64,000 nt of DNA from assembly GCA_964611385.1 (NCBI GenBank), contig CAZSXS010000001.1:31058-95057 (forward strand), written 5' to 3'. The notes below the pieces were generated by a model. It worked only from the letters and a program-made list of their open reading frames with translations, was not told the origin of the DNA and did not search any database. This DNA is from an uncultured Defluviitaleaceae bacterium. Lineage in GTDB: Bacteria > Bacillota > Clostridia > Lachnospirales > CAYPQA01. Made by a program: the position numbers and the translations under genes. This document shows, one piece after another, positions 14,414 to 62,405 of the stretch (within the stretch, counting starts at the first letter, position 1; every line of letters starts with the position of its first letter).

Positions 14414-14455
14414 CAAAAAAAGAGTAGCGCAGAGGAATGCACTACTCTTTTTTTA
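14414..14455. terminator. bidirectional terminator after the two-component operon
   Basis: AAAAAAAGAGTAG...CTACTCTTTTTTT. Confidence 0.8.
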
Positions 14456-14487
14456 GTTTCTTTATAAAGACAACCGATAGCATGGAG

Positions 14488-19377: not shown

Positions 19378-19390
19378 ATCGAAATAACAA

Positions 19391-19435
19391 AAGACGGGGC
19401 TGCTTGCTTTTTAGCAAGACAGCCCCGATTTTTTA
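19391..19435. terminator. terminator between the convergent ABC and pmbA-like genes
   Basis: CGGGGCTGCTTGC-TTTTTA-GCAAGACAGCCCCG followed by TTTTTT. Confidence 0.85.
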
Positions 19436-19455
19436 TCCATTTTTAACTTATGTTG

Positions 19456-20700: not shown

Positions 20701-20718
20701 CTCAAAGCTCCTTCTTTG

Positions 20719-20739
20719 GAAGTTCATGACTGAGTATAG
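20719..20739 (+). repeat. R1 repeat, right-end fragment
   Basis: GAAGTTCATGACTGAGTATAG lies in the 50-bp gap between the tldD and pmbA-like genes. Compare GCTGAACATGACTGAGTATAT at 49614-49634. Confidence 0.5.
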
Positions 20740-20750
20740 CACGCATTCAC

Positions 20751-37076: not shown

Positions 37077-38266
37077 TTTTAGCTCACAAAATACAACTTG
37101 ACCCGAATAATGTTCAAGCAACCTATTTTGCCAAAGCTTGTGGTGTTGCTCGTTTTGCTTATAACTGGGGACTTGCTGAATGGAAAAGACTTTATGAAGC
37201 AGGTGAAAAGGTAAACGAAGGAATATTAAGAAAAAATCTAAACGCTATAAAAGGTGAGGAATTTCCTTGGATGCTTGAAGTCACAAAATGCGCTCCACAG
37301 TTGGCAATTAAAGACGGCTTAAACAAAGCGTTCCAAAACTTTTTTCGTGGATTAAAACAGGGTAACCCAGTCGGTTTTCCTAAGTTTCATAAAAAAGGTG
37401 TACACGACAGTTTTGCGTTGTCTAACGATCAATTTAGAATAGATGGCTTAAAAATCAAAATCCCTAATCTCGGTTGGGTTAGACTGACAGAAAAATTACG
37501 TTTTATCGGGAAAATAATAGGGGCCACAATTAGTCGTAAAGCAGATAGACGGTTCGTATCCGTGCAAGTAGAAATATCTGACCCTACACCAATTCATACA
37601 ACTGTTAGCGAAAACCAAGCAATAGGTGTTGATTTAGGCGTTAAGGATTTGGCAGTTTTATCAGACGGAACAAAGATAACAGGAACAAAACCACACAAAG
37701 CTTTACTATCACGATTACGTCGCCTTAATCAATCTCTTTCAAGAAAACAAGGTGCGAAAAAAGGCGAAAAGAAGTCTAAAAACTTCAAAAAAACACAAAT
37801 GAAGCTGTCAAGATTACACGCAAGAATAGCAAACATACGAGGCGATGAAACTCACAAGCTAACTACAATGCTAACTGATAATTATAGCCTTGTAGGTATT
37901 GAGGATTTGAATGTGTCGGGTATGGCTAAAAATCACAAATTGGCTCGTGCTGTCCTTGATATGAGTTTCTTTGAATTTCGCAGACAATTAGAGTATAAAA
38001 CAAAAATGAAGGGAGGGCACGTTATCATTGCGGATAGGTTTTATCCGTCCAGCAAAGCCTGCTCTTGTTGCGGTTATAAAAACAATGAATTGACTTTATC
38101 TGTACGTGAATGGATGTGTCCTAATTGCAAAACAACGCACGACAGAGACATTAATGCTGCAACAAATTTAAAGAATTACGCCGTGAGTTACACGGTGTCA
38201 GCCTGTGGAGAGTTAGTGGAAACAATCACCTCGAAGAAGCAGGAACTCAACATCACTGCCGAATAG
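37073..38266 (+). CDS. tnpB: TnpB (OrfB_IS605-type RNA-guided endonuclease family)
   Basis: RuvC-I GVDLGVKDLAVLSDG, zinc finger CSCCGYKN...CPNCKTTHDRDINAATN with RuvC-III. ATGA overlap with tnpA. Confidence 0.9.
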   Translation: MILAHKIQLDPNNVQATYFAKACGVARFAYNWGLAEWKRLYEAGEKVNEGILRKNLNAIKGEEFPWMLEVTKCAPQLAIKDGLNKAFQNFFRGLKQGNPVGFPKFHKKGVHDSFALSNDQFRIDGLKIKIPNLGWVRLTEKLRFIGKIIGATISRKADRRFVSVQVEISDPTPIHTTVSENQAIGVDLGVKDLAVLSDGTKITGTKPHKALLSRLRRLNQSLSRKQGAKKGEKKSKNFKKTQMKLSRLHARIANIRGDETHKLTTMLTDNYSLVGIEDLNVSGMAKNHKLARAVLDMSFFEFRRQLEYKTKMKGGHVIIADRFYPSSKACSCCGYKNNELTLSVREWMCPNCKTTHDRDINAATNLKNYAVSYTVSACGELVETITSKKQELNITAE

Positions 38267-48161: not shown

Positions 48162-48749
48162 TTATTTTTTGCTTCGAGAACCGTTTGTGCTGCTGTCATC
48201 CGCATCATCGTCAAAGTCGTCGTCTTCAAAATCGTCGTCGTCAAAGTCCTCATCATCGAAGTCCTCGTCATCAAAATCCTCATCGTCGAAATCGTCCTCA
48301 TCGAGTTCTTCTTCATCGTAGTCCTCATCGTCGAAATCGTCGTCGTCAAAGTCTTCATCGTCATCGTCTTCATCATCTTCATCGTCTACGTCATCTTCGT
48401 CGAACTCTTCGTCATCATCAAAATCATCCAGATTTTCATCCAAGTCTTCGAACAGCTCATTAAAAACCTTAAGAACAGCGTCGTATTCCTCATCGCTTTC
48501 GATGTTGTCAAGTTCCACATCCTCGTCCTTCTCAGTGTATCTGAAAATAAGCACGTGATCTTCCTGTAAAGGCAGCAGGGCAATATAGCTCCTTGCACCG
48601 ATTTCGAAATCCACGTCAAAAACGCCAAGAACATTACATTCAAGGTTGTCGTTTCCTTCCACCGAAATGATAACTGTTTCATTTCCTCCGCATCCGCAGC
48701 CGTCGTGACTGCATCCGCCGTTGCAACCATCATTGCAATGATCAGCCAT
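48162..48749 (-). CDS. DUF1292-family protein with Cys-rich N-terminus and poly-acidic C-terminal tail
   Basis: DUF1292-like core (LECNVLGVFDV..RSYIALLP...VLIFRY). N-terminus HCNDGCNGGCSHDGCGCGG. About 95-aa D/E/F tail (DEDFDD repeats). ATG at 48749 after GAGGTG. Confidence 0.7.
   Translation of the reverse strand: MADHCNDGCNGGCSHDGCGCGGNETVIISVEGNDNLECNVLGVFDVDFEIGARSYIALLPLQEDHVLIFRYTEKDEDVELDNIESDEEYDAVLKVFNELFEDLDENLDDFDDDEEFDEDDVDDEDDEDDDDEDFDDDDFDDEDYDEEELDEDDFDDEDFDDEDFDDEDFDDDDFEDDDFDDDADDSSTNGSRSKK
48165..48440 (-). repeat. low-complexity GAT/GAC/GAA-rich coding repeat (acidic tail)
   Basis: The plus strand shows reiterated TCGTCGTC/TCATCATC units. It encodes the D/E/F-rich tail of the DUF1292 protein and spawns shadow ORFs in other frames. 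Confidence 0.85.
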
Positions 48750-48869
48750 GATATTCACCTCATTATAAATTATCGTATGCATCCATTTCCATTCTGTTTT
48801 AAGTTACTGATATATCCTTGCATTATACCACAGGAATGAAAAATTGTAATCATTTTTTCAAAATATTTT

Positions 48870-49636: not shown

Positions 49637-49684
49637 AAATAAACCCTGTTGGGTTATAAAATAATATTTTAGGAGATGAAGACG

Positions 49685-50302
49685 ATGCCGAACTACAACC
49701 TGAACATTTCATTCGAAGCAGCAGATCTTTCAACGATTATTTCGGCCAATCAGAAGGTCACCTTGGTCAAACAAAATAACCAAGGGATCAACCTTGCTTG
49801 GGTTGCATTCCAACCCTTCCAGCACAACACCTTGGAATGGAAAAGCGATTATGCCCTCTATTGCTCAAACAGTGAGCTTCAATCGGGTGTTCAGATTAAC
49901 AAACTGTCCGATGTAATGGCCACAGCTGCCTTGAAGTACATTTTCAAAAACGCCTGTTTTTCATCCACCAAGGATGCCGGTGAACTCCTTTTGCCCGATT
50001 CCTATTATGTGAGAAACGAAATGGATGGCTATGACGCTTTGACCTTTGGTCTTGCTCAAGGGATTTATGTAAACGGCAAGGCCATTCCAAATCGCCCCAT
50101 CAATGCGGTTATGGTTCCCTTCATGCACAACACTTCCTTTACGCCGTATGAAATTGTGAATGTTTACTTGGAGGCTAACATAAAGGAGTCCATGGTCGTT
50201 ACCAATGTCAGTACCAATCCCATTACTCTGGTGTTTGGCGGCGGCATTGACACCATTAATATCAAGTACAATAGAGCTTCCGGATCCTTCTATCAAGAGT
50301 AA
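49685..50302 (+). CDS. hypothetical protein with internal two-fold repeat
   Basis: ATG 9 nt after AGGAG. No signal peptide. The two halves share the pattern IN.A.V.F.PF.HNT...W/F......Y (AWVAFQPFQHNTLEW / NAVMVPFMHNTSFTPY). A strong terminator follows. Confidence 0.6.
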   Translation: MPNYNLNISFEAADLSTIISANQKVTLVKQNNQGINLAWVAFQPFQHNTLEWKSDYALYCSNSELQSGVQINKLSDVMATAALKYIFKNACFSSTKDAGELLLPDSYYVRNEMDGYDALTFGLAQGIYVNGKAIPNRPINAVMVPFMHNTSFTPYEIVNVYLEANIKESMVVTNVSTNPITLVFGGGIDTINIKYNRASGSFYQE

Positions 50303-50406: not shown

Positions 50407-51897
50407 CTACTCCGTCAAGATATCAACCCAACTCTTTGCATGAACACTAAATGGTTGGGGATAGCGGTTCAGTCCAAAATTTGAATCAATAATCACTGCC
50501 ACCACATCCATCTGGCCATAGGTAGGTGAGGTATAGACAGTATCCTCATAATCTAACAGGATCCATCCGATTCGATGCCTTTGGTCTGTTGGAATACAGT
50601 TGAAGCTTAACGGATCCCCTATATAGTTGATTATGGCATCCATAACATAAATTCCCGTGATTCCACAGGTCGCTGTTGCACTGGCAAAGTTAAGAACAAT
50701 ACAGGTGGGCACTAGAGTTTGCTTTCGTTGAAACGCCGCTGTTACTAGGTTTATTTTTTCACTTCGATCCTGTAAGCTCTTAAATTGATCCTGGACATAG
50801 AGCAGATTCAATTGGCGATTTTGGGCTGTGTCGATGGCAAAGGAGCCGTTTGTATTTTCTCTCCAACTTATAGGATAGCCGAAGCGAAAGCTGGTATCAA
50901 TTCGGTTGAGTAAAAAAATACGACCCCGAACATCATCTAGGGTGCTGTTTAAGCCTCCGACAAAAACAGGATAGCCAGTCAATACAGCATTCAAGGCATT
51001 TAAAACATTGACTGCATCATTTTCGTAGCTGGACCAATCGTCCATCTTCAAGGTCATGATGAGGCATTCTGTAGGGTTGGTCTGTAAAAAGGTTGCGCAG
51101 GTATTCAAAACAGTAAGAAAGGGTTCATACTCGTTGATTCTGATCAAAGAACCAATGCTGCCGTGACAGGTACTGAAGGTGTAAGCGTTTGTGGCAGGAT
51201 CTACATTGACCCGCAGCCGGATATCCAGGATCCGAATGCCGCTGTTTAATTGTTGAAGGATGCTTGTCTTGTGGCAGGCGTACAAGGAATGTGCCGTTAT
51301 GGGTAGTAAATCCGAAGGGAAATAATTGGTGCGTATGGCGGCAGCATCATGGGTTCCGGGAATGTTGATATCCCCTATGTAAACATCATCGTTTAGATAA
51401 CTCATCCAATGTGCCCGGTCTATGGGCGTATAAAAATCCATGCAAATGCTCTTAATCAAAAGCTTGGTATAATCGGATACGTTTATGAGCCTTAAGTGAT
51501 TTTTATCAGGCCTTACTAAATCCAGGTGAATCGTCAAGGTAATCACAAAGAGCTTCTGAGGCCTACTGCCTTTTACCAGCGCAAGGTTTTCAACTATAGC
51601 CAGCTCTTTTTCAAGGGGCTGCTCATTTACAAAAACACTTATTTGATTTTGGACTGCTGCTGTTTCGGAGGGGATGATCACTTCAAAGCTTATGGTAGCT
51701 TCCATCCCTTCTGGATAACGAAAATCAAAGTCCAGGGTACTAATATCCTCCGCATTGTTATTCATGGAAAGACATGCAAATGCAGGCTCATAGCTACAGT
51801 TGTCAAAGACAAAATCACTGATGCCTTCATCCATTCTTGCCGAAATTTCTGAAAAGTCAATTTTGAGTGTCTCATGTTTACTATCCACTTTTCCCAT
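50407..51897 (-). CDS. PI-PLC X-domain-like phosphodiesterase with unknown ~160-aa N-terminal domain
   Basis: The blocks INIPGTHDAAA, ILDIRLRV and TCHGS match the catalytic His regions of bacterial PI-specific phospholipase C-like enzymes. No signal peptide. Confidence 0.6.
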   Translation of the reverse strand: MGKVDSKHETLKIDFSEISARMDEGISDFVFDNCSYEPAFACLSMNNNAEDISTLDFDFRYPEGMEATISFEVIIPSETAAVQNQISVFVNEQPLEKELAIVENLALVKGSRPQKLFVITLTIHLDLVRPDKNHLRLINVSDYTKLLIKSICMDFYTPIDRAHWMSYLNDDVYIGDINIPGTHDAAAIRTNYFPSDLLPITAHSLYACHKTSILQQLNSGIRILDIRLRVNVDPATNAYTFSTCHGSIGSLIRINEYEPFLTVLNTCATFLQTNPTECLIMTLKMDDWSSYENDAVNVLNALNAVLTGYPVFVGGLNSTLDDVRGRIFLLNRIDTSFRFGYPISWRENTNGSFAIDTAQNRQLNLLYVQDQFKSLQDRSEKINLVTAAFQRKQTLVPTCIVLNFASATATCGITGIYVMDAIINYIGDPLSFNCIPTDQRHRIGWILLDYEDTVYTSPTYGQMDVVAVIIDSNFGLNRYPQPFSVHAKSWVDILTE

Positions 51898-52195: not shown

Positions 52196-54007
52196 ATGGA
52201 AACGGAATATGACATAAGCAAACGATACGAAAAAAACAGAGCGGCAGTAAAAGCATACCCAAACCTCTACAGCGGCAACTTACCGCCTTTTGAAGCGGTT
52301 TCCGAGCGCATTCTTTGGAAGGATGATTACTGTGTGACCTATACATCCCTTTCACAAACAGATGCGCCCTTTGAGAACAAAACGATTTTTCTGGAACGCT
52401 TTCATTTGCTCAGCCCATATGGCAAGGTTCTTCTGTTTATCAATGTAATTCACTATAGCGCCCTAGCAGATCTGGAAAAAGCATCAAGAATAGAAAACGA
52501 CTTACCCAATTGTCTACTTCCCTTTTATTTATATTTCGATGAGCCTGTTTTTCATGTTTTTTTGCAGCTTTATGATTTGGAGACGCTGCTTGATTCTTCT
52601 CGGGTTGTTTTCTTGGTAGGAAGGACTCACTTTGAGACGTTTTTCAGTGACTTTGATGCGATTGCTCCAGATTTTCTTTTGGGGGCAGACCTCGAACGGA
52701 TTAACGGTCTGCTAAAAAAAATCGATGAGCAGAAACAAAATCGATTGGCAGAAGCCCAAGCAGAGGTCATGCGCTACTATGGCCAGAATGCAGACAAGAT
52801 TCGGGAACGGGTAAAAGAAGGCCGCCCCAGACTTTTATTCATAACTACCCTGTTCAGCACAGCGATCCAGTACCACTGCCAAAATGCATATCAAGCCGCC
52901 CTTGCCCTAGGCCTGGAGGCAAGCTTTGTGATTGAAAAGTCTCCTATACACCGGAAGATGTATTATGAAATTGAATTGCAAGCCTATAAACCAGACTTGG
53001 TTTTTGTTGTTGACCATCTGCGCTTTGAATACCCCTTATTCTCCCTTCTTGAATCGCTTTATTATATCTGCTGGGTGCAGGATCCCATGCCGCATATTTT
53101 TTCCAAGGACAGCCCAGCCAAGTTAGTCCGGCGGGATTTTATTTGCAACCATTACACCAGCTGGCAGGATTTTTTTGAAATCGGCTACCCGCCGGAAAAA
53201 GTAATCAAAGCACCCATTCCCGCCAACGAAACGATTTATAGACCCCTGCTTCTTTCCGAAGGGGAGCAGCAGTATGCTTGCGAAGTCTGCCTGCTCTGCC
53301 ATGACTGCAATTTTGACCGCTATGTCCGGGAGGTATCCGAAACCTTCGCTGCCTACAAAGATGACATAAAAGACCTTTTTAACGAATATGCTACAATAGC
53401 GGTTGAGCAAGAGGAATTCAGATGGCCTGGGAAAAGAATCGCCGACTTTATTGCTGCGTTTCTGAATGAAAGAGGGATCGTATTCAGCGAAGAAGTGCTT
53501 TCCAAGCTAAATAAAGGCCTTGGGATCAGCGCAGCCCAGAAACTCTACAGACTTTGCTTGGCTCGGTGGCTGATTGAGGCTGGATTTGATGTCAAGCTTT
53601 GGGGGAAGGACTGGCTTGAACTGGAAGAATTTAAAGACTATGCCTGCGGGATTGCAGAAAACGGAGAATCCTTATCCAAAATCCTGCAAGCAGCCAAAAT
53701 TGTTCTGGGCAACAATGTACACATGACAGGAGCCGCCCGAGCCTGGGAAAGTATGCTGAGCGGGGCTTTTTACCTATCCAACCGAATTAAAACGGAACTG
53801 GACATGGCAAATCTTTGGGAAATCATAGGGGAAGCAGTGGCTTCCTTTCAAAGCAAAGAGGACTTGATCCCAAAAGTTCACTATTACCTACAAAATGAAG
53901 AAGAAAGACTGCGACTAGCCAAGATCGGGCGAGAAGCCGCCCTAAGTAAAATGACCTTTAAGTCCTTCATTGAAAGATTGATTCAAGAGCTAGCGGATAG
54001 GGTGTAG
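52196..54007 (+). CDS. CgeB-family glycosyltransferase-like protein (DUF3880 / Glyco_trans_1_2-like C-terminus)
   Basis: ATG after GAGGTGGAGC. The C-terminal block NNVHMTGAARAWESMLSGAFYLSN...FQSKEDLIPKVHYYLQNEEERLRLAKIGREAAL is typical of CgeB/YkvP-type domains. Confidence 0.55.
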   Translation: METEYDISKRYEKNRAAVKAYPNLYSGNLPPFEAVSERILWKDDYCVTYTSLSQTDAPFENKTIFLERFHLLSPYGKVLLFINVIHYSALADLEKASRIENDLPNCLLPFYLYFDEPVFHVFLQLYDLETLLDSSRVVFLVGRTHFETFFSDFDAIAPDFLLGADLERINGLLKKIDEQKQNRLAEAQAEVMRYYGQNADKIRERVKEGRPRLLFITTLFSTAIQYHCQNAYQAALALGLEASFVIEKSPIHRKMYYEIELQAYKPDLVFVVDHLRFEYPLFSLLESLYYICWVQDPMPHIFSKDSPAKLVRRDFICNHYTSWQDFFEIGYPPEKVIKAPIPANETIYRPLLLSEGEQQYACEVCLLCHDCNFDRYVREVSETFAAYKDDIKDLFNEYATIAVEQEEFRWPGKRIADFIAAFLNERGIVFSEEVLSKLNKGLGISAAQKLYRLCLARWLIEAGFDVKLWGKDWLELEEFKDYACGIAENGESLSKILQAAKIVLGNNVHMTGAARAWESMLSGAFYLSNRIKTELDMANLWEIIGEAVASFQSKEDLIPKVHYYLQNEEERLRLAKIGREAALSKMTFKSFIERLIQELADRV

Positions 54008-54057
54008 CCACCCAGCGGGGCATATTTTAGAAAGATTTTAAAAAGTGAGAGGTTTCT

Positions 54058-55116
54058 ATGTCTGATTTAAGGCTGGATTCACAAAAGCTGATTTACCATC
54101 CGGAGGCTGTGGCTGCTTGGCTTTTGGGGAAAGAGATAAGCCCCCTTGAGCTGGAAATCGGCTTAAGCGGGGCTTGTAATCATCGTTGTATTTTTTGTGC
54201 GGTGGACTATTGCGGCTACCAGCCTCGGATGCTAGACACGGGTATTTTGCTTAAAAACGTAAAGGCCCTGTCCAAGCGAGGCTTGAAAAGTATCAATTAC
54301 TCTGGTGAGGGTGAGCCTTTGATTCATAAAGAGGCACCCTATATTTTTAATGAGACCAAGGCTCTTGGGATTGAGATTGGCATGTCCACCAATGGGGTAC
54401 TCTTTGGGGAGGAACAATGTAAGGCTTGCTTGAAATCCTTCTCTTGGGTGCGGTACAGCATTGGGGGCATACGGGATAGCAGTTATAAAAAGATACACCG
54501 CTGCAAGGAAGGGGACTTAAGCAAGGCCTTGGCCAACCTACAGACTGCCGTGGATGAAAAGCACAGGCAACAATTAAAGGTGATCATCGGGGTACAGTTG
54601 ATTTTATTGGAGGAAAACAAGGCTGAGGTCATTGAGATGGCGCAGACCCTTCGAGGAATCGGAGTTGACTACTTTACGGTAAAGTCCTATTCGTGGCATC
54701 CTCAAAGTTTGAATAAGCTGGATATAAGCTATGAGGATTTGCAGGAGATGGAGCAGGAACTCAAAAGCTTGGAGACGGATCGATACAAAATTTATTTTAG
54801 AACCAACTCCATGAAAAAAATAAACGGCATAAAGCCATATGATTGCTGTTATGGCCTGCCCTTTATGGTTTACATAGATGCCGCTGGGAATTTGTATCCC
54901 TGCATTGTATTTCTGGGCAGAAAAGAGTTTGCCTACGGGAATCTTTATGAAAAGGATTTTACCGAAATTTGGAGCAGTGAGCGAAAGAGAGAAGTAATGG
55001 CTCTGTTTCAAAAAGACTTCCTGAATCAAAATTGCCGAGATGCCTGCCGCCTGGATGAAATCAACCGTTATTTGCACCGGCTTCGGCAACCGGAGGAGAA
55101 TGATAACTTTATTTAA
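54058..55116 (+). CDS. radical SAM enzyme (paralog 1)
   Basis: CxxxCxxC cluster motif ACNHRCIFC, GGEP-type motif SGEGEP, C-terminal Cys-rich region. Ends in ...NDNFI, like paralog 2. Confidence 0.85.
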   Translation: MSDLRLDSQKLIYHPEAVAAWLLGKEISPLELEIGLSGACNHRCIFCAVDYCGYQPRMLDTGILLKNVKALSKRGLKSINYSGEGEPLIHKEAPYIFNETKALGIEIGMSTNGVLFGEEQCKACLKSFSWVRYSIGGIRDSSYKKIHRCKEGDLSKALANLQTAVDEKHRQQLKVIIGVQLILLEENKAEVIEMAQTLRGIGVDYFTVKSYSWHPQSLNKLDISYEDLQEMEQELKSLETDRYKIYFRTNSMKKINGIKPYDCCYGLPFMVYIDAAGNLYPCIVFLGRKEFAYGNLYEKDFTEIWSSERKREVMALFQKDFLNQNCRDACRLDEINRYLHRLRQPEENDNFI

Positions 55117-55126
55117 AGGGGTTGCT

Positions 55127-55993
55127 ATGGCGTATTGTAATCAAGTTTCAACGCCCACTAAGGAAGAACCGCTCTACTACACCGAATGCTGCAAGGCCAT
55201 CCGAAGGAAGATTTTTAAGCTGGGCTATGCAGCAAAGGGGGCGCACCTGGGAGGCTGCTTTTCGGCGGTGGAGATTTTGACTGCGCTGTATCTGGGCGGC
55301 GTATTGAAGCTGACGCCGGAGAACCTGAGCAGCCCCGCGCGGAATCGCTTTGTCCTCAGTAAGGGTCATGCGGGGCTTGCTCTTTATGCTGTCTTGCATG
55401 AATGCGGACTGATCGGCGAGATCATACAGTCCTATTGTCAAGAAAGCGGCTGCCTTGGGGTTCACCCCAAGCGAAACGAGTTGCCCGGCATTGAGGCCAC
55501 AACAGGCTCTTTGGGACATGGGCTTTCTTATGCGCTGGGCCTGGCCCTGGGGGCTAGACTTGCCGGGCTTTCCTTCCAGGTATACTGCCTGTTGGGGGAC
55601 GGGGAATGCCAAGAGGGGAGCGTGTGGGAGGCAGCCTTGTTTGCAGGGCAGCAGCGCATTGGGAATCTGACGGCTATCATTGATTCCAACCGACTGCAAG
55701 CCATGGATCGCCTGGAAGCCATAGTGGACATGGAACCTTTCGAAAGCAAGTGGAAGTCCTTTGGCTGGGACTGTCGCCGCGTGGATGGGCACAATGTGCC
55801 GGAGTTGGTGGAGGCGCTTACAGACAAAAACCCAGCAAAGCCCACCGTGCTGATTGCCGATACCGTGAAGGGAAAAGGCGTTTCCTTTATGGAAGGCAAG
55901 GCCCTGTGGCATTACCGTATGCCGGACGAAAGCGAGCTGGACCTTGTATGCCTGGAGCTTGGGCTGTCCAAAAAGGAGCTTGTGTATCCATGA
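55127..55993 (+). CDS. transketolase, N-terminal (TPP-binding) subunit
   Basis: Blocks GGCFSAVEIL, SKGHAG and the TPP motif GDGECQEGSVWEA. ATG at 55127 after AAAGGGG. Confidence 0.85.
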   Translation: MAYCNQVSTPTKEEPLYYTECCKAIRRKIFKLGYAAKGAHLGGCFSAVEILTALYLGGVLKLTPENLSSPARNRFVLSKGHAGLALYAVLHECGLIGEIIQSYCQESGCLGVHPKRNELPGIEATTGSLGHGLSYALGLALGARLAGLSFQVYCLLGDGECQEGSVWEAALFAGQQRIGNLTAIIDSNRLQAMDRLEAIVDMEPFESKWKSFGWDCRRVDGHNVPELVEALTDKNPAKPTVLIADTVKGKGVSFMEGKALWHYRMPDESELDLVCLELGLSKKELVYP

Positions 55994-56919
55994 GAAATGC
56001 CTTTATTCAAGCACTCTACGAACTGGCTGCCCTGGATCCCAGGATTTGCGCACTGATTTCCGACAATGGGGCCATTGTGTTTGACCGCTTCAAGGCGGAC
56101 TTTGGAGATCGGCTGATCAATTTCGGGATCTCTGAGTGCAATATGATCGCTGCCGCTGCGGGGATGGCCTCCTTGGGACTTATTCCCTTTGCCTATACCA
56201 TTTCGAACTTTCTAAGCATGAGGGCCTTTGAATTTATCCGCAACGATATTTGTATCAACAAAGCCAATGTAAAGCTGGTGGGGATCGGAGCCGGGTTTTC
56301 CTACAGTGCGCTGGGCACCACCCATCACGGCACGGAGGATATGGCCATCCTGCGCCCTTTGCCTTCTCTGTACATTGTTTCTCCAGCCTCAGCTGCTGAG
56401 ACAAAGGCAGCGGTTCAGGCTATGGCTTCCATTGAGGCCCCTGTTTATTTACGGCTGGGAGGGGGCGGGTTAATGGATGCCGACAGTACAATCCTTTCGG
56501 ATCGCTTTGCGCTTGGAAAGGGTGTCCGAATCAAAAACGGGAAGGACTTAAGCCTTCTTTCTACAGGCTCTATCCTTACAGAAGTCATACAGGCTGCTAA
56601 GGACTTGGAGGCCTTGGGGATTGAAGCCGGAGTCGTACATATACACACCGTCAAGCCCATTGACGAAGAACTCATTCTTTCCGTGGCCACGGAATCAGCC
56701 GCTCTTGTCACCATAGAGGAACATTCCGTTACCGGGGGACTTGGGGATGCGGTCTTGGAGCTCTGCGCAAGGAAGGGCTGCTTACCCAAGCGCTTTCTCA
56801 AAATCGGCCTGGAAGGTTTTGCTGTGGGCTACGGATCCTATGCTTATCTGAAAAAAGCAAACGGACTGGATGCAGAGGGAATCGTAAAGCGAATTTTACG
56901 TGTAGGGGGGGCTTTATGA
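55991..56919 (+). CDS. transketolase, C-terminal (pyrimidine-binding) subunit
   Basis: MRNAFIQAL..., FGISECNM and GTTHHGTEDMA blocks. Its start overlaps the N-subunit stop (ATGA). Confidence 0.85.
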
Positions 56920-57626
56920 GCGAGAAAATCGAAAAGACCGAAAAAACACTTTGGGATTTTTACGGAGCGATCCAAAAAGAAAAGCCGATTGAACTGGGGC
57001 CGTACACCTCGTATCGCTTCCTTAACTCCCCCAGGCAGCTGCTCTTTTCCATTGCCAGATATAAATTTGCCGCCAAGCTCTTTGGGAGTAAGCAAAGAAT
57101 CCTAGAGCTTGGCGGGGGGGACGGCCTGGGGGCTTACTACCTGTCTGAGTTTGAGCATGAGGTAAGCTGTGTTGACTTTGACGGGACTTCCATCGGCTGG
57201 GCAAAGGAGAATCCTGTCCTTTCCCACATTCACTTTATTGAGGATAATTTTTTGGGTCAAAGCTATGGTGTGTTTGACGGCGTGGTTTCCTTTGATGTGC
57301 TGGAACATATTTATCCGCGTAACGAAGGTCTCTTCATGCACACGATCAAGAAAAACCTCTCGGAACACGGGGTCTTGATCCTGGGGACACCTTCCCTGGA
57401 AAGCCAGCAGTATGCCGGTAAGGACATCGGAGGCGCTCATGTCAATCTCTATACCGGCGAAGGCCTAAGGGAATTGCTCTCCGAGCATTTTCACCATGTT
57501 TTCTTGTTTACACAAAACGACGAAATCATCCATACAGGCTTTTTCCCCATGGCCAATTATCTCATTGCCCTTTGCTGCGGGAAAAAGGAATCTACGGACG
57601 GAGGTATTCATGAGCCAAGCCCATAA
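56916..57626 (+). CDS. class I SAM-dependent methyltransferase
   Basis: Motif I ILELGGGDGLG and post-I VDFD. ATGA overlap with the transketolase C subunit. Confidence 0.8.
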   Translation: MSEKIEKTEKTLWDFYGAIQKEKPIELGPYTSYRFLNSPRQLLFSIARYKFAAKLFGSKQRILELGGGDGLGAYYLSEFEHEVSCVDFDGTSIGWAKENPVLSHIHFIEDNFLGQSYGVFDGVVSFDVLEHIYPRNEGLFMHTIKKNLSEHGVLILGTPSLESQQYAGKDIGGAHVNLYTGEGLRELLSEHFHHVFLFTQNDEIIHTGFFPMANYLIALCCGKKESTDGGIHEPSP

Positions 57627-58698
57627 GCCGGAAGCCACACCTTACAGCCGATTAAAAATATTTCACCACGAGGAACTAATCAAAAAGCTGGGAACAGGAC
57701 AACGCTGTGCGCCTCTTCGTATCCGCATAAAGCCTACCAATCGCTGCAACCATAACTGTACCTTTTGCCACTACCTGAATCCCTACTTAACCTTGGATCA
57801 CTTCAAGCCCGATGACTTTATTGACCGCGAAAGAATGCTGTCCACGCTGCGGTCGATCCAAAAAGCCGGAACCAAGGCCATTGTCTTTTCCGGCGGCGGC
57901 GAACCGCTTCTTTATCCCTATATGGAAGACAGTGTGGAACTCGCCAAGAGCTTGGGTCTTGAATATGCCTTAATCACCAACGGAACCCTGCTGAAAGGGC
58001 GGCTGGCGGAACTGTTTGCGGAAGCCAAATGGGTAAGGATCTCCATCAATTCTGTCCGAGACGAGGTATACTGCAAAAGCCGGGACATCAAAGCGGGTGA
58101 ATTTACCAAGCTGTGCAGTGTGATTGAGTCCTTCGGCAAACAGAAAAAATCAGGCTGCGAACTGGGTATCAACTTTGTAATTGGGCCGGAAAACTACGCT
58201 GAGATCATTGAAGCCGGACTATTACTAAAATCCCTGGGCGTCAATCACATCAAATTCTCCGCCCAATTCAGCAACACCTTTCAGGAAGACCACGCTCCCT
58301 TTAAGGACGAAGCCCTACAACAGCTGGCAGAACTAAAGCAAGAGCAAACAGAAGCCTTCAAAATCATCAACTTATATGAAGGTGACCTGCAAGCCCACGG
58401 CACCTGCGCAACCTTCCGGCGCTCCTACTCACACTGTTACGCCAAGGAATTTTCCTGCGTGATCGGTGCAGACTCCAGGGTGTACTTCTGCCACGATAAG
58501 GCCTACCTCAAAGACGGCGTAGCCTTCGACCTGAAAGACGGTTCCTTTCACGAGCTTTGGGCAGCCCCCGAAATCCTCCAAAAGTACCAAGCCTTCCAAG
58601 CCGATCAGGTCTGCCCCCACCACTGTACATACGATGAATTAAATGCACTCCTTCATGCCTTTTTCGGGATAAAAAAAGAACATATCAATTTTATATAG
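57610..58698 (+). CDS. radical SAM enzyme (paralog 2)
   Basis: CNHNCTFCHY cluster motif and SGGGEP. N-terminal KIFHHEEL parallels KLIYHPEA of paralog 1. Ends ...HINFI. ATG at 57610 after GGAGG. Confidence 0.85.
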   Translation: MSQAHKPEATPYSRLKIFHHEELIKKLGTGQRCAPLRIRIKPTNRCNHNCTFCHYLNPYLTLDHFKPDDFIDRERMLSTLRSIQKAGTKAIVFSGGGEPLLYPYMEDSVELAKSLGLEYALITNGTLLKGRLAELFAEAKWVRISINSVRDEVYCKSRDIKAGEFTKLCSVIESFGKQKKSGCELGINFVIGPENYAEIIEAGLLLKSLGVNHIKFSAQFSNTFQEDHAPFKDEALQQLAELKQEQTEAFKIINLYEGDLQAHGTCATFRRSYSHCYAKEFSCVIGADSRVYFCHDKAYLKDGVAFDLKDGSFHELWAAPEILQKYQAFQADQVCPHHCTYDELNALLHAFFGIKKEHINFI

Positions 58699-58700
58699 AA

Positions 58701-58808
58701 GTTATACTCAGCTTCTTTAACAATTACCAAGCCCGCCATCATTCACCCCAAATGGATTCCACTGTTCTGCGTGGCGGCTTTGTAAAACTGAACGTGATAA
58801 CTATAACT
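58701..58808 (+). repeat. R1 repeat, compact full copy
   Basis: Left arm GTTATACTCAGCTTCTTTAACAATTACCAAGCCCGCCA, 33-nt interior, right arm TGGCGGCTTTGTAAAACTGAACGTGATAACTATAAC. Starts 3 nt after the radical-SAM stop. Confidence 0.85.
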
Positions 58809-58809
58809 C

Positions 58810-58914
58810 CCCACGCCCGGCTTTTTTGAAAGGGATAGGAGGGGTTTGGGGGAGGGAAGGGAAAACTTTTTTCGCCGTTTGAAAAAAGTTTCCCCTTCCC
58901 TCCCCCAAGGTCTT
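58810..58914 (+). repeat. R2 repeat copy 3 (stem 58848-58872 / 58882-58906)
   Basis: Same architecture, with stem GGGGGAGGGAAGGGAAAACTTTTTT and one A-C mismatch. Directly abuts R1 copy 58701-58808. Confidence 0.9.
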
Positions 58915-58934
58915 GTCCTTATAAAGGAGGTTTT

Positions 58935-59597
58935 ATGCCGCAAATAACCCTTGTCTCACAACTTCATTGCCTAACAGGGCGAAATTATACTGAAAGAGTC
59001 GTAAAGTATGATAAGCCCGCCTGTGCGGAGGTGGCTAAACAGTTCGGGAAAGACTATTGGGATGGCGAAAGAAAGTTTGGCTATGGTGGCTATCGCTATG
59101 ACGGAAGATGGAGTCCAATAGCGGCTGCCCTGAGCGAACGGTATCAGCTCTGCGGCCAAAAGAAAGTCCTGGACGTGGGCTGTGGTAAGGGCTTTTTGCT
59201 CTATGAATTGACCCAACATAATCCTCAGCTTTCCGTGACTGGCCTTGACCCTTCTGTCTATGCCCTTGAACATGCCAAGGAGGAAGTTAAACCCTTCCTG
59301 CAAGTCGGTCGAGCCGAAGCCCTGCCCTTCCCTGATCATTCCTTTGACTTGGTCATTTCTGTAATGACCTTGCATAACCTCTACCTGTATGACCTCAAAA
59401 AAGCAGTCGAAGAAATCATTCGAGTCTCAAAGAAAGACGCCTACATCTGCGTTGAATCCTACCGTAACGAGCGGGAAAAAAATAACCTACTGTGCTGGCA
59501 GCTTACTTGTGAGGCTTTTTTTACTCCAGAGGAATGGGAGTGGCTCTTTGCCCAGTGGGGCTATGCGGGTGATTATGAGTTCCTTTATTTTGAATAA
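58935..59597 (+). CDS. class I SAM-dependent methyltransferase
   Basis: Motif I VLDVGCGKGFL. AAGGAGG RBS. Preceded by the R1+R2 composite repeat. Confidence 0.8.
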   Translation: MPQITLVSQLHCLTGRNYTERVVKYDKPACAEVAKQFGKDYWDGERKFGYGGYRYDGRWSPIAAALSERYQLCGQKKVLDVGCGKGFLLYELTQHNPQLSVTGLDPSVYALEHAKEEVKPFLQVGRAEALPFPDHSFDLVISVMTLHNLYLYDLKKAVEEIIRVSKKDAYICVESYRNEREKNNLLCWQLTCEAFFTPEEWEWLFAQWGYAGDYEFLYFE

Positions 59598-59609
59598 GCG
59601 GAGGTTTGT

Positions 59610-60590
59610 ATGCTGTCTCTTGTAACTGGGGGCGCTGGCTTTATCGGCTCTCACCTTGTGGATTTGTTGTTGGAAAAAGGCCACCATATCCGAGTGCTGG
59701 ATAACTTGTGCTGCGGTAGACCCTCAAATATTCCCCAACATCCATACATAGAATTGATTCAACAGGACATTCGTGATCAAAAGGCCATCGAAGCCTGCTT
59801 CAATGGCGTGGACTATGTCTTCCACCTGGCAGCCCTGGCAGATATCGTGCCCTCTATAGAAAAGGCTCAGGCCTATTACGAAACCAATGTAACGGGTACC
59901 TTTAATATCCTGGAATGTGCTCGTAAATACGAGATCAAAAAGCTGGTCTATGCCGCCTCTTCTTCCTGCTATGGTATTCCCAAGGAATACCCCACTCAGG
60001 AAAGCGCGGAAATAAAACCCCAATACCCCTATGCCCTGACCAAGCGCCTGGGCGAGGAGCTAGTACTTCATTGGGGAAAGGTCTATGGCCTGCCCGTACT
60101 CAGCCTTCGCCTCTTTAACGTGTATGGCCCTCGTGCAAAAACCTCTGGTACATACGGGGCAGTCTTTGGCGTATTTCTGGCACAAAAATTAAAAGGCCTG
60201 CCCTTTACCGTTGTGGGGGACGGTGAGCAGACCCGAGACTTTACTTATGTTACTGATGTAGCAAACGCTTTTTATAAGGCGGCTATATCAGATGTAGAAG
60301 GAGAGATTTTTAACGTGGGCAGCGGAGGTACTTATTCCGTCAATGAGCTAGTGAGGCTCTTGGGCGGCGAGGCCGTGCAGATCCCCAAGCGCCCCGGAGA
60401 GCCGGACTGTACCTTTGCCGATATCCAAAAGATTAGACGCATGTTGCACTGGGAGCCCTTGGTTCGCTTTGAGGAGGGCGTAGGCCATGTGCTAAAAAAT
60501 ATTGACTACTGGAAGGAAGCACCTGTCTGGACTCCTGAGTTAATCGAAGGAGCCACTAAGGACTGGTTTCGTCATCTGAGATTCGAATAA
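59610..60590 (+). CDS. NAD-dependent sugar-nucleotide epimerase/dehydratase (extended SDR)
   Basis: Rossmann motif VTGGAGFIGSHL and catalytic YxxxK (YALTK). Confidence 0.85.
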   Translation: MLSLVTGGAGFIGSHLVDLLLEKGHHIRVLDNLCCGRPSNIPQHPYIELIQQDIRDQKAIEACFNGVDYVFHLAALADIVPSIEKAQAYYETNVTGTFNILECARKYEIKKLVYAASSSCYGIPKEYPTQESAEIKPQYPYALTKRLGEELVLHWGKVYGLPVLSLRLFNVYGPRAKTSGTYGAVFGVFLAQKLKGLPFTVVGDGEQTRDFTYVTDVANAFYKAAISDVEGEIFNVGSGGTYSVNELVRLLGGEAVQIPKRPGEPDCTFADIQKIRRMLHWEPLVRFEEGVGHVLKNIDYWKEAPVWTPELIEGATKDWFRHLRFE

Positions 60591-60608
60591 TTCTGAGATT
60601 CGAGTAAT
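60575..60608 (+). repeat. tandem 17-nt duplication spanning the epimerase stop codon
   Basis: TCTGAGATTCGAATAAT / TCTGAGATTCGAGTAAT (one mismatch), immediately before the R1 left arm. Confidence 0.85.
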
Positions 60609-60854
60609 ATTCTCAGTCTCCTAAGCTGTTGCCAAGCCACCATAATCATAAAGCACACTCTACTCGGGCAAAATGCAAGTAAAGCGATCCGATGAAAGCC
60701 CCGAAAGGGATACCGCCCCAAACGTCTTACGCCCAGTACAAGTGTAGGGCGGTGTCCCTTTCGGGGCTTGGACGTGAATAACGATGTTGCTTGATACGTG
60801 TGTATCGCTTGTCATAGTACGTGGCAGCCTTGCAAAGCTGACAGTGACTGAGCA
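60606..60854 (+). repeat. R1 repeat, expanded copy enclosing a 22-bp GC-rich hairpin
   Basis: Left arm AATATTCTCAGTCTCCTAAGCTGTTGCCAAGCCACCA, right arm GTGGCAGCCTTGCAAAGCTGACAGTGACTGAGCA. Interior hairpin 60697-60718 / 60747-60768. Confidence 0.8.
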
Positions 60855-60875
60855 TGAAAGGTAAAAAGGAGATCT

Positions 60876-62405
60876 ATGGGCAGAATTTTAAGCAAACAGG
60901 AATTTTTACCGATAGGGGAAGGCTTGAAAAACGAAGGGAAAAGGATTGTTCTTTGTCATGGCGTTTTTGACTTGGTGCATCCTGGGCATTTAATACATCT
61001 GGAAGAAGCAAAAAGCCTGGGCGATGTGTTGGTTGTTTCGGTTACCGCCGCAAGGTTTGTGCGAAAGGGGCCGGGGCGACCTTTTTTTGATGACGAGCTG
61101 CGGCTGAAATTTTTATCCTCCCTGGAGCCGGTGGATTTTGTGCTTTTGTCGGAAAGCGACACGGTGGAGGATATCGTAGAGCTTGTAAAACCCAGCTTTT
61201 ATGTCAAGGGGGAGGAGTATGCCACCACAGAGGACTTGACCGGGAAAATCGGCTTTGAAGCGGAGCTGGTAAAGAAATACGGCGGCGATTTGTATTTCAC
61301 TAAGGGGCAATGTTTCAGTTCTACCAAGCTGATCAACAATGCCCTACCAGCTCTGACACCAGAGGTCAAGGCGTTTTTGAACCGGCTGCGGGAGCAGTAT
61401 AGCTTTGAGAAGATCAAGGGCTATGTGGACAAGATGAAGGGTCTATCCCTGCTGGTGGTGGGGGATATCATTATCGACGAGTATGTGTACTGTAAGCTTC
61501 AGGGGCTGATGCACAAGGATACAGGCTATTCGGCTCGCTATGTGGACTCGGAGCAGTTTTTGGGGGGCGCCTTGGCCATAGCCGGACATGCGGCAGAATT
61601 TTCGGAGAACGTAAGCCTGTTATCCGTGGTGGGCACTGAAAGTCCTCTGCACAGCCTCATCTTAAATGGCTTAAGCAATAAGATGCGGGTGCTGCTTGAG
61701 TCCGGCGAACAATATCAAAGCATTGTAAAGAAGCGCTTCATTGTCAGAAACGAAAAAAGAGCAGAACTGAACAAAATTTTTTCCATCAACAATCTTCCCA
61801 CCGATCCGCGTATAGATGAGGGTCTCATGCGGCGCTTCAAAAGCAGGCTGAACGATATCATTTCTGGCTTTGATGCTGTTCTATTGGCCGATTTTGGTCA
61901 TGGGCTTATTGACCGGGAAGTCATGGAAATCATACAAAAGAAGGCCAAATTTTTGGCCCTCAACTGTCAGACCAACTCCTCCAACGCAGGGCTCAATCTC
62001 ATCACCAAATACCATAGAGCCGACACCTTTGTTCTGGATCAAAAGGAGCTGCGGCTTGCCTTTGGAGACTACAGCCTCGGTGAGCGGGAAGGGCTTTTAA
62101 AGCTGCAAGCTCACTTCAAGACCAAGGGCTGGCTTACACAAGGTTCCTTAGGCACTACGGCAGTGGATGAGGATGGGGAGCTGCTTCACTGCCCCGCTTT
62201 CACCTTGAATGTGGTGGACACCATAGGGGCGGGTGACGCCTTCTATACCTTGGCGGCACTTTCTACTCTTTCCGGCGTACCGGTTTTACCCGGAACCTTC
62301 TTGGCCAACGTAGCGGGGGCCTTGGCGACCAACTTTGTGGGTAACAAGGAGAGCGTGGGAAGGGTTGATTTATTGAAGTATGCAAACACTTTGATGAAAG
62401 GTTAA
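60876..62405 (+). CDS. bifunctional cytidylyl/adenylyl-transferase-like + PfkB sugar kinase (domain order reversed relative to RfaE/HldE)
   Basis: N-terminal HxGH nucleotidyltransferase motif (GVFDLVHPGHLIHL). C-terminal PfkB signature DTIGAGDAF. Confidence 0.75.
   Translation: MGRILSKQEFLPIGEGLKNEGKRIVLCHGVFDLVHPGHLIHLEEAKSLGDVLVVSVTAARFVRKGPGRPFFDDELRLKFLSSLEPVDFVLLSESDTVEDIVELVKPSFYVKGEEYATTEDLTGKIGFEAELVKKYGGDLYFTKGQCFSSTKLINNALPALTPEVKAFLNRLREQYSFEKIKGYVDKMKGLSLLVVGDIIIDEYVYCKLQGLMHKDTGYSARYVDSEQFLGGALAIAGHAAEFSENVSLLSVVGTESPLHSLILNGLSNKMRVLLESGEQYQSIVKKRFIVRNEKRAELNKIFSINNLPTDPRIDEGLMRRFKSRLNDIISGFDAVLLADFGHGLIDREVMEIIQKKAKFLALNCQTNSSNAGLNLITKYHRADTFVLDQKELRLAFGDYSLGEREGLLKLQAHFKTKGWLTQGSLGTTAVDEDGELLHCPAFTLNVVDTIGAGDAFYTLAALSTLSGVPVLPGTFLANVAGALATNFVGNKESVGRVDLLKYANTLMKG

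Follow-up and report, generated by a model that had tools for sequence, protein, structure and literature searches.

A candidate cassette for a decorated, heptose-type nucleotide sugar in an uncultured Defluviitaleaceae bacterium

Introduction

Here we analyze a cluster of nine genes in a 64,000-nucleotide stretch of DNA from an uncultured Defluviitaleaceae bacterium (GenBank assembly GCA_964611385.1, contig CAZSXS010000001.1, positions 31,058 to 95,057 of the forward strand). The whole stretch is called the window, and positions are counted in it unless stated otherwise. The cluster (52196–62405) appears to be a free-standing copy of a widespread modular cassette that would make a decorated, nucleotide-activated heptose-type sugar and transfer it to an acceptor. 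We give this reading a probability of about 0.55. A preliminary description, made by a model from the sequence and a list of open reading frames (ORFs), had proposed a nucleotide-sugar tailoring cluster around a fusion protein whose domains stand in reverse order to those of HldE; domain matches and the linkage of the genes in other genomes support that proposal.

Four points are the strongest of what is new: the linkage of the cassette genes across phyla, the swapping of three classes of thiamine diphosphate (ThDP) enzymes at one place in the cassette, the family-wide loss of the phosphate pocket from the transketolase, and the complementary distribution of radical S-adenosylmethionine (SAM) enzymes and short-chain dehydrogenases/reductases (SDRs).

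Gene content of the cluster

The features of the cluster are as follows.

52196–54007, + strand: glycosyltransferase, 603 amino acids (aa), with the Pfam domain PF13524 in its last third only
54058–55116, + strand: radical-SAM/SPASM-type enzyme 1 (rS1 family), 352 aa, with CNHRCIFC and a C-terminal NFI
55127–55993, + strand: N subunit of a split transketolase-like ThDP enzyme (TkN), 288 aa (PF00456, 117.6 bits)
55990–56919, + strand: C subunit of the split transketolase-like ThDP enzyme (TkC), 309 aa (PF02779 and PF02780)
56916–57626, + strand: class I SAM methyltransferase of the Methyltransf_23 type (Pfam), 236 aa
57610–58698, + strand: radical-SAM enzyme 2 (rS2 family), 362 aa, with CNHNCTFC and a C-terminal NFI
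58846–58908, + strand: predicted hairpin 1, 28-nt arms and 7-nt loop, in the spacer between radical-SAM enzyme 2 and the second methyltransferase
58935–59597, + strand: class I SAM methyltransferase of the Methyltransf_11 type, 220 aa (Pfam, 75.5 bits)
59610–60590, + strand: extended SDR of the GalE-like epimerase/oxidoreductase type, 326 aa (PF01370, 216 bits)
60696–60769, + strand: predicted hairpin 2, 28-nt arms and 18-nt loop, in the spacer between the SDR and the fusion
60876–62405, + strand: fusion of a nucleotidyltransferase (N-terminal, HPGH) and a PfkB kinase (C-terminal, DTIGAGDAF), 509 aa

By ORF calling, all nine genes lie on the + strand, in line with the co-orientation described before. 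The earlier count of ten genes was one too many, and the spacers hold no credible extra ORF. "Mostly overlapping" was also too strong: three of the eight junctions overlap (by 4, 4 and 17 bp), the others being three gaps of 10–50 bp and two spacers of 236 and 285 bp. Eight gene products were looked up in a public protein collection and all eight are exact entries there, as singletons; TkN was not among them, and its start (55127) is that of the Logan gene call. Searches with hidden Markov models (Pfam, NCBIfam) bore out the domain content that had been assigned.

A modular cassette in many genomes

Relatives of the fusion number more than 3,000; those nearest to it, about 60% identical, are found in Lachnospiraceae, Roseburia, Ruminococcus and similar metagenome-assembled genomes (MAGs). 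A scan based on the fusion alignment, with one genome per species, gave 80 loci, with Firmicutes, Cyanobacteria (Microcoleus), Verrucomicrobiota, Planctomycetes, Alphaproteobacteria, Nitrospirota and others among the hosts. The ORFs of these loci were clustered at 35% identity or more and 70% coverage, and neighbors were counted over 73 non-redundant loci. The neighbor counts that follow are lower bounds, many loci being cut by contig ends.

The commonest neighbor of the fusion is a GmhA-like isomerase, which stands next to it in 38 of the 73 loci. The transketolase subunits N and C accompany the fusion in 36 and 34 loci, the window-type SDR in 34, radical-SAM enzyme 1 in 33 and the Methyltransf_11 methyltransferase in 30; radical-SAM enzyme 2 and a GmhB-like phosphatase do so in 24 loci each. 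Counting ThDP enzymes of any class raises their share to 50/73. The tightest partner of the ThDP enzyme is the Methyltransf_11 methyltransferase: 26 of the 30 loci that carry its gene also have a ThDP enzyme. Its identity across phyla is 50–61% in transketolase-containing loci and 42–45% in those that contain the E1 class. The Methyltransf_23-type enzyme is an optional module (9/73 loci). The radical-SAM paralogues are mainly a Firmicute trait (31 of 41 loci for enzyme 1 and 24 of 41 for enzyme 2), and the cassette occurs without them in Verrucomicrobiota, Cyanobacteria, Alphaproteobacteria and others.

Around three fusion homologues on long contigs the same neighborhood recurs: a large PF13524 glycosyltransferase, two or three radical-SAM genes, an SDR, a ThDP enzyme, the fusion, an orthologue of the window SDR, a SIS_2 isomerase and a HAD phosphatase. 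Flagellin, Maf (MptE-like) and NeuB genes come next in two of the three. The commonest order in Lachnospiraceae is a protein family labeled f16, GmhA-like isomerase, GmhB-like phosphatase, SDR, fusion, radical-SAM enzymes 1 and 2, TkN, TkC and the Methyltransf_11 methyltransferase. The arrangements nearest to that of the window, in a Eubacteriaceae MAG (L083) and a metagenome locus (L093), read glycosyltransferase, radical-SAM enzyme 1, TkN, TkC, radical-SAM enzyme 2, Methyltransf_11 methyltransferase, one unassigned position and fusion.

The genes are therefore clearly co-conserved across related loci; a lack of co-conservation, which would have spoken against the preliminary description, is not what the loci show. 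Their complement is not unusual. Many Lachnospiraceae-type genomes carry the modular cassette of which it is one version, and the cassette is common in gut Clostridia and often found beside flagellin genes. The statement that no characterized pathway was known for this complement agrees with our literature search, which found no orthologous characterized pathway and no study of the cassette or its product.

The glycosyltransferase and its possible acceptor

The leading gene had been called a CgeB-like glycosyltransferase. The label holds for the C-terminal, GT-B-like half: PF13524 (Glyco_trans_1_2) scores 48.7 bits against a cut-off of 25, over residues 462–596, and the remainder of the protein has no Pfam, NCBIfam or PDB sequence match. 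The protein aligns at full length with proteins of 655–699 aa that head related clusters and lacks their TPR-like N-terminus of about 90 aa. The family has 134 representatives at E≤1e-30 (HMMER).

This family heads the cassette in 7 genome and 16 metagenome loci, and flagellin, Maf or NeuB is within reach in 12 of these 23. At least one of the three lies within 10 kb in all seven genome loci and in 5 of the 16 metagenome loci, most of which are short. In the metagenome scan, anchored on the glycosyltransferase, radical-SAM enzyme 1 directly follows it in seven loci, flagellin is present in two, Maf in three and NeuB in five. Flagellin itself lies beside the cassette in the relatives L002, L004, L008, L011, L102 and L104; other relatives have Maf or NeuB. 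The flagellar target suggested before is thus plausible from the relatives, with none of these genes in the window. Flagellin is our best guess for the likeliest acceptor of the glycosyltransferase family, one that no gene in the window confirms.

Of the other readings, one that keeps the same chemistry and replaces flagellin by another acceptor survives best. The sugar could go to an S-layer or spore protein, to a wall polymer, or to the product of an unannotated neighboring ORF. The window has no flagellar gene in its 64 kb, and the cluster stands alone between housekeeping genes, from which its raised GC content sets it off (0.48–0.50 over 54001–62000, the maximum of the window, against 0.39–0.46 in neighboring sequence). 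The absence of the TPR-like N-terminus and the presence of f16 at the head of the same sugar module in other Lachnospiraceae, which hints at different acceptors, point the same way. The proximity of flagellin, Maf or NeuB to every genome relative of the glycosyltransferase, and to 5/16 metagenome loci, tells against it. We consider another acceptor rather unlikely.

The f16 protein has 453 aa, is weakly TagF-like (Glyphos_transf, 20.9 bits against a cut-off of 22.1) and takes the place of the PF13524 glycosyltransferase at the head of the commonest Lachnospiraceae version (L021, L022, L026, L027, L032, L077 and others). The TagF likeness hints that the sugar may be CDP-activated and, in f16 species, passed as a sugar phosphate to a polymer. 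The sugar module may be portable between acceptors.

A minimal form of the cassette lies directly upstream of flagellin, Maf and NeuB on metagenome contig Ga0137308_100372 (L104, positions 5000–21800 of that locus). Its order is fusion, GmhB-like phosphatase, glycosyltransferase, two methyltransferases, SDR and GmhA-like isomerase. Radical-SAM and ThDP genes are absent from it, which would make it a natural control in work on the undecorated sugar.

The fusion, the SDR and a probable heptose-type route

The nucleotidyltransferase of the fusion occupies residues 27–133 and the kinase about 185–490. This order, the reverse of that in HldE, is common to all 16 aligned relatives (16/16), in which the catalytic motifs HPGH and DTIGAGDAF are invariant. 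HldE domain II is the best match of the N-terminal half and HldE domain I that of the C-terminal half, as expected of the reversed HldE/RfaE-like fusion recognized in the preliminary description. The HldE-domain matches have E values of 8e-27 for the PfkB half and 2e-29 for the nucleotidyltransferase half, against about 1e-6 and 2e-9 for the next families. The scores are below the NCBIfam cut-offs: rfaE_dom_I, the best match of the PfkB half, gives 94.2 bits (cut-off 345), and rfaE_dom_II, the best match of the other half with its HxGH present as HPGH, gives 102 (cut-off 181.5). The nearest structures are the heptose-7-phosphate kinase HldA of Burkholderia (4E84; E 1e-13), the putative cytidylyltransferase 5X9Q, which we take to be HldC, and 3GLV.

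Three architectures have been listed for enzymes of nucleoside diphosphate (NDP)-heptose synthesis, namely mono-domain, kinase/nucleotidyltransferase and isomerase/kinase/nucleotidyltransferase, and their roles outside lipopolysaccharide (LPS) are largely unknown (PMC11573728). The order nucleotidyltransferase-kinase is not among the three. Enzymes described as promiscuous have the motif (F/L)xxGRSTT (PMC11573728); the fusion family lacks it in that form and has the consensus GQVFSSTK.

The architecture of the activating enzyme also varies between phyla. In six loci from Nitrospirota and others (L059, L062, L065, L069, L073 and L080) a separate gene for a 157-aa cytidylyltransferase (f30) lies just upstream of the fusion homologue. 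A second upstream protein in the same six loci (f24) has a weak ArgZ-like C-terminal match (PF21570, 28.7 bits), and the fusion match there is about 160 aa longer.

The preliminary description had noted the absence of GmhA and GmhB as a gap in any heptose pathway. For the window this holds, in that tblastn found no homologue of GmhA, GmhB, flagellin, Maf or NeuB in the 64 kb. As an argument against heptose it is weakened by the 38/73 and 24/73 related loci that have GmhA-like and GmhB-like genes beside the fusion. GmhA and GmhB are the best NCBIfam matches of the relatives' isomerase and phosphatase, at scores under the cut-offs (105.8 against 265 and 143.8 against 178). The absence is a peculiarity of the window locus, and a heptose-type route is the default reading. 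From these matches we conclude that the sugar activated by the cassette is most probably a heptose or a close analogue; the window locus would then depend on isomerase and phosphatase genes outside the window.

The fusion might instead activate some other sugar or polyol, and the cassette would then lead to another branched, methylated nucleotide sugar. This would suit the window without GmhA and GmhB, the heptose-family matches that all fall under curated cut-offs, and the 35 of 73 related loci that have no GmhA-like gene within 10 kb. We consider it improbable, for the fusion domains are specifically nearest to HldE domains, to HldA (4E84) and to the putative cytidylyltransferase 5X9Q, the GmhA-like gene is the most frequent neighbor of the fusion, and many of the loci that seem to lack that gene end at contig edges.

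The GalE-like SDR is a conserved partner of the fusion, the window protein being 57–70% identical to its counterparts across phyla. Its nearest PDB entries are Pal (6BWL) and GalE enzymes, and the motifs ASSSCYG and YALTK are kept in 35 and 33 of 38 members. It scores 184.8 bits with the GalE model of NCBIfam (cut-off 262.3) and 127 with the heptose epimerase model (cut-off 274.6). The gene had been annotated as an NAD-dependent epimerase/dehydratase. It is indeed an extended SDR of the GalE-like kind; the dehydratase half of that label does not stand, nor would an identity with HldD. The Ser-Tyr-Lys motif of the GalE-like type and the lack of an Asp-Glu pair rule out both an HldD heptose 6-epimerase and a 4,6-dehydratase.

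The split transketolase

The two transketolase subunits are nearest to the chains of the split transketolase of Carboxydothermus hydrogenoformans, TkN to the N chain 6YAK (E 7e-61) and TkC to 6YAJ (E 1e-59). The cofactor site is intact. The ThDP/Mg motif GDG...N and the cofactor-activating Glu are invariant in 40 N-subunit and 38 C-subunit sequences. Residues are given in what we take to be the E. coli transketolase numbering, mapped through the 6YAJ alignment. The ThDP/Mg residues of TkN and its donor-side histidines H26 and H261 are kept in 39–40 of 40 family members and H66 in 39/40, while H100 is kept in 28/40 only. In TkC, Glu411 (38/38), Arg358 and His473 are kept.

Four other residues of TkC are not. 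Among the 38 cluster-linked members, Ser385 is replaced in all, His461 is Gly in all, Arg520 is replaced in 37 and Asp469 is Leu in 36. At Ser385, His461, Arg520 and Asp469 the window protein has Ile, Gly, Gly and Leu. By this alignment, the TkC family is without the residues of the canonical enzyme that bind the sugar phosphate and read the C2 hydroxyl. Scores with the transketolase equivalog NF004559 are below the cut-off (238.1 bits for N and 175.5 bits for C; cut-off 488).

The ThDP enzyme is also exchangeable. In the 50 loci that have one, 38 carry the split transketolase, 10 an E1 alpha/beta pair and 4 an acetolactate-synthase/YerE-like enzyme, two loci having two types. The classes alternate with constant partners, namely the fusion, the SDRs f9 and f18, the Methyltransf_11 methyltransferase and a zinc-dependent alcohol dehydrogenase. 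Examples of the swap are L046 vs. L043, L050 and L069, and L002 vs. L004 and L006. The same three classes are exactly those named in a 2025 review for ThDP enzymes that branch keto sugars (PMC12247030). Split-gene transketolases with this role have only been proposed, for miharamycin and amipurimycin, with 13 more predicted, all in Streptomyces and none characterized (PMC12247030). The RmlB-like 4,6-dehydratase f18 (192 bits) occurs in non-Firmicute loci only. In the window the ThDP gene sits inside a nucleotide-sugar cluster, in which the keto-forming step would fall to radical-SAM enzyme 1. A 4,6-dehydratase is the classical source of 4-keto sugars.

The preliminary description had offered two roles for the transketolase, in situ supply of a ketose phosphate or of a two-carbon-branched sugar precursor. 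The loss of residues from TkC and the swapping of ThDP classes together favor the second, in the form of two-carbon branching of a nucleotide-linked keto sugar, and disfavor the first. In the supply role the enzyme would act upstream, providing sedoheptulose 7-phosphate or a longer ketose phosphate such as octulose 8-phosphate, which would then be isomerized, phosphorylated and activated. The transaldolase LmbR of the lincosamide octose pathway would be a parallel. Both subunits are nearest to a genuine split transketolase (6YAJ/6YAK, E about 1e-60), with cofactor and donor-side histidines retained save for H100 in many members, and this much suits supply. It is hard to square, however, with the replacement of Ser385, His461, Arg520 and Asp469 in 36–38 of 38 cluster-linked TkC, with a place that E1 alpha/beta and YerE-like enzymes, which make no ketose phosphates, can fill equally, with transketolase scores of 238 and 175 against 488, and with the many loci that have the fusion and a GmhA-like gene and no ThDP enzyme (23/73 loci lack one). 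Supply upstream of the fusion has, in our view, a small chance of being right.

The radical-SAM enzymes

The two radical-SAM proteins had been taken for paralogues on the strength of shared motifs, and they are so over their full length (27% identity, E 1e-35). The motifs CNHxCxFC, N-terminal K-[LI]-x-[YF]-H-x-E and C-terminal NFI are all shared as described, and NFI, K10 and H14 are invariant in 27 aligned sequences. Enzyme 1 matches Radical_SAM (PF04055) at 62.9 bits and SPASM (PF13186) at 38.3 bits; enzyme 2 matches Radical_SAM at 74.2 bits and has SPASM below the cut-off (18.1 against 21.5). No named radical-SAM model of NCBIfam reaches its cut-off with either. A full SPASM motif has seven Cys; here only four to five C-terminal Cys are conserved by eye, of which C264, C282, C326 and C330 are invariant, and this suggests enzymes with one auxiliary cluster (twitch-like). 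Neither is likely to be a radical-SAM methylase, an option that was rejected when Pfam found no cobalamin-binding or HemN-like domain.

The rS1 family comprises 1,748 clusters at E≤1e-20, with generic names only, and in relatives its gene directly adjoins that of the fusion or the glycosyltransferase. An AlphaFold2 model of enzyme 1 (pLDDT 84, pTM 0.86) has DesII (8HZV) as its best fold match in the PDB (E 7e-16, TMq 0.61–0.67), followed by maturases of ribosomally synthesized and post-translationally modified peptides (RiPPs), BlsE, viperins and BtrN. The radical-SAM enzyme DesII acts on TDP-sugars and turns them into keto sugars. For enzyme 2 the nearest PDB sequences are BlsE and viperins (about E 5e-7).

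Radical-SAM enzymes and the SDRs f9/f18 are nearly mutually exclusive: 36 loci have radical-SAM genes only, 19 the SDRs only and 3 both. The former belong to anaerobic Firmicute-type loci and the latter are found elsewhere. In three loci (L020, L022 and L081) the rS1 gene comes directly after the fusion, together with an aminotransferase and an acetyltransferase and without a ThDP enzyme. Such a set needs a keto sugar, which fits a keto-sugar-forming step. From the modeled fold and these settings we propose, with low to moderate confidence, that enzyme 1 generates a keto (deoxy) sugar.

Enzyme 2 is found with enzyme 1 and a ThDP enzyme in 20 of the 24 loci that have it. A third radical-SAM subfamily (f21) of about 370 aa, also with an NFI end, takes its place beside the ThDP enzyme in some loci (L009, L011, L012, L059, L062, L073, L075, L076 and L080) and accompanies E1 alpha/beta pairs in Nitrospirota. 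Because both travel with the ThDP enzyme, enzyme 2 and f21 would act on or around the two-carbon branch, again with low to moderate confidence.

Spacers and surroundings of the cluster

The two predicted hairpins are strong (-55.9 kcal/mol, z -6.7 for hairpin 1; -55.1 kcal/mol, z -7.7 for hairpin 2) and each is single-copy in the window. They fill the only long spacers of the cluster and so divide it into three blocks: glycosyltransferase to radical-SAM enzyme 2, methyltransferase and SDR, and the fusion. The breaks that they mark fall where the gene order departs from that of relatives. The hairpins may serve in transcript processing or termination, or they may be scars left when modules were shuffled. 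REP- or MITE-like elements were considered and rejected, there being no copies elsewhere in the window. Across the SDR stop codon lies a 17-nt tandem direct repeat (60575–60608), TCTGAGATTCGA(A/G)TAAT. An Rfam scan of the entire window gave no match, and pattern scans for promoters and terminators gave no signal over shuffled background. The raised GC content of the cluster is consistent with lateral acquisition.

Another reading takes the cluster for what is left of a cassette gained by lateral transfer, now in decay and without function, its precursor genes lost and hairpin spacers inserted. This would explain the missing GmhA and GmhB, the two atypical strong-hairpin spacers, the 17-nt duplication over the SDR stop codon and the atypical GC content, but it is very improbable given nine intact, full-length ORFs with preserved CX3CX2C, GDG...N, HPGH, DTIGAGDAF and YxxxK motifs and an identical sequence assembled in two sequencing runs.

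The genes on either side of the cluster are unrelated to it. Upstream lie a large ORF of 1,130 aa, which we take to be AddB-like, a DUF1292 protein (48162–48782, - strand) with a long, highly acidic C-terminal tail rich in Asp and Glu, and two ORFs of 208 aa (49676–50302, + strand) and 496 aa (50407–51897, - strand) directly before the cluster. Neither of the last two matches a Pfam model or has a homologue in the related loci examined, and the shorter one (208 aa) shares the orientation of the cluster. About 14 kb upstream is a gene for an IS605 OrfB/TnpB-like transposase with a Cas12f-like TNB domain (37073–38266). Downstream neighbors are a flavin mononucleotide (FMN) reductase and a beta-propeller protein. 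The view in that direction covers 2.6 kb, of which 1.6 kb are in the window and about 1 kb comes from contig L001, whose ORFs were scanned with Pfam only.

A proposed pathway

Gene content, paralogy, linkage, active-site changes and fold similarity are what we observe, and from them we infer in which order the steps follow, which substrates and nucleotide are used, and what the acceptor is. The route would begin with the isomerization of sedoheptulose 7-phosphate to heptose 7-phosphate by a GmhA-like enzyme, whose gene is adjacent in most relatives and not in the window. The PfkB half of the fusion would phosphorylate C1, a GmhB-like phosphatase (gene likewise not in the window) would dephosphorylate C7, and the N-terminal half of the fusion would couple the nucleotide, giving an ADP- or CDP-sugar. 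This NDP-sugar would be epimerized or oxidized by the GalE-like SDR. Radical-SAM enzyme 1 might then use radical chemistry like that of DesII or BtrN to produce a keto (deoxy) sugar, and the neofunctionalized split transketolase would put a two-carbon hydroxyacetyl unit on the carbonyl to form a C-branched nine-carbon sugar. Radical-SAM enzyme 2 and the two methyltransferases would tailor the product, and the leading glycosyltransferase would transfer it to a protein, which in relatives is most probably flagellin.

Several points weigh against this account. The loci behind the linkage counts often stop at the edge of a contig, and the taxonomic split is taken from the titles of MAG records. 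GmhA- and GmhB-like genes are absent from the window, both from the 52 kb before the cluster and from the 1.6 kb after it, and there is no flagellin, Maf or flagellar gene, so that precursor supply and acceptor are presumptive for this genome. Scores fall below the curated cut-offs for HldE, for GmhA and GmhB (in relatives), for transketolase, GalE and HldD, and for all named radical-SAM equivalogs; as every heptose-pathway match is of this kind, another ketose-derived phosphate is possible. The window also has neither the SDR1 nor the zinc-dependent alcohol dehydrogenase that accompany the ThDP enzyme elsewhere as ketoreductase partners. The match of enzyme 1 to the DesII fold is modest (TMq about 0.6, 14–17% identity), and RiPP maturases score nearly as high. 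Finally, keto-sugar branching by split transketolases is so far only proposed, none of these enzymes having been characterized in vitro (PMC12247030).

We still prefer the reading of the cluster as a cassette for a decorated, heptose-type nucleotide sugar. Its fuller form is more tentative, at clearly less than even odds: an undescribed route to a C-branched nine-carbon, heptose-derived sugar on flagellin, with a re-tooled transketolase, with radical-SAM enzymes replacing NAD-dependent dehydratases in anaerobes, and with NDP-heptoses in Gram-positive bacteria.

If this is true, the cassette would offer the first split transketolases for keto-sugar branching that form a tractable, widespread family, recognizable by a clear sequence signature, and a new family of radical-SAM enzymes for nucleotide sugars with more than 1,700 sequence clusters. 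It would also mean that the flagellins of abundant gut commensals, which are major immune antigens, carry an unknown glycan. NDP-heptoses are agonists of ALPK1 and are usually attributed to Gram-negative bacteria; Gram-positive gut bacteria would become a source of such metabolites sensed by vertebrate ALPK1. The find in the window is more modest, one divergent and isolated copy of the cassette without precursor genes or a visible acceptor.

Comparison with known systems

By analogy, the cluster resembles a combination of an NDP-heptose pathway, ThDP-dependent branched-sugar biosynthesis, radical-SAM sugar tailoring and a flagellin glycosylation island.

With the pathway to ADP-L-glycero-beta-D-manno-heptose (GmhA, HldE, GmhB, HldD) it shares a PfkB kinase and a cytidylyltransferase-like domain, to which relatives add GmhA- and GmhB-like genes. 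It differs in the reversed domain order, in scores below the cut-offs, in a GalE-like SDR in place of HldD and in the absence of GmhA and GmhB from the locus. The host differs too, being of the Gram-positive type and having no LPS.

The ThDP enzymes that branch keto sugars, or may do so, are the YerE-like enzymes, the alpha-KADH2 E1 alpha/beta enzymes of aldgamycin and kibdelomycin, and the proposed split transketolases of miharamycin and amipurimycin. As in these systems, a ThDP enzyme stands in a cluster for nucleotide-sugar tailoring, and the split-gene architecture of the proposed Streptomyces enzymes matches the window pair. Known or predicted split cases belong to the secondary metabolism of Streptomyces, whereas the present ones are from gut anaerobes and diverse environmental phyla. 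The substrate proposed here is a heptose nucleotide, and radical-SAM enzymes, not a 4,6-dehydratase, would be the source of the keto sugar. The canonical split transketolase of C. hydrogenoformans (6YAJ/6YAK) has the same two subunits, which match at E values of about 1e-60, and the same ThDP/Mg site, activating Glu and donor-side His. Compared with it, the acceptor/phosphate pocket of the window enzyme appears remodeled, and its genes lie in a glycan cluster, not in pentose-phosphate metabolism.

DesII, BtrN, BlsE and viperin, which oxidize, deaminate, dehydrate or decarboxylate sugars or nucleotides, have in common with the cluster enzymes a CX3CX2C core and a Cys-rich C-terminal auxiliary domain. 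The cluster enzymes are only 13–19% identical to them, have N-terminal K-L-x-Y-H-x-E and C-terminal NFI motifs of their own, and occur in sets of two or three paralogues in each cluster.

Campylobacter, Aeromonas, Clostridium botulinum and Geobacillus have flagellin glycosylation islands that contain Maf genes and genes for nonulosonic acids. In relatives the cassette likewise lies beside flagellin, Maf (MptE-like), NeuB and CMP-sugar genes. Unlike in those islands, the transferase here would be a PF13524 enzyme of the GT-B type and not Maf, the sugar would not be a nonulosonic acid, and the window has no flagellin or Maf gene.

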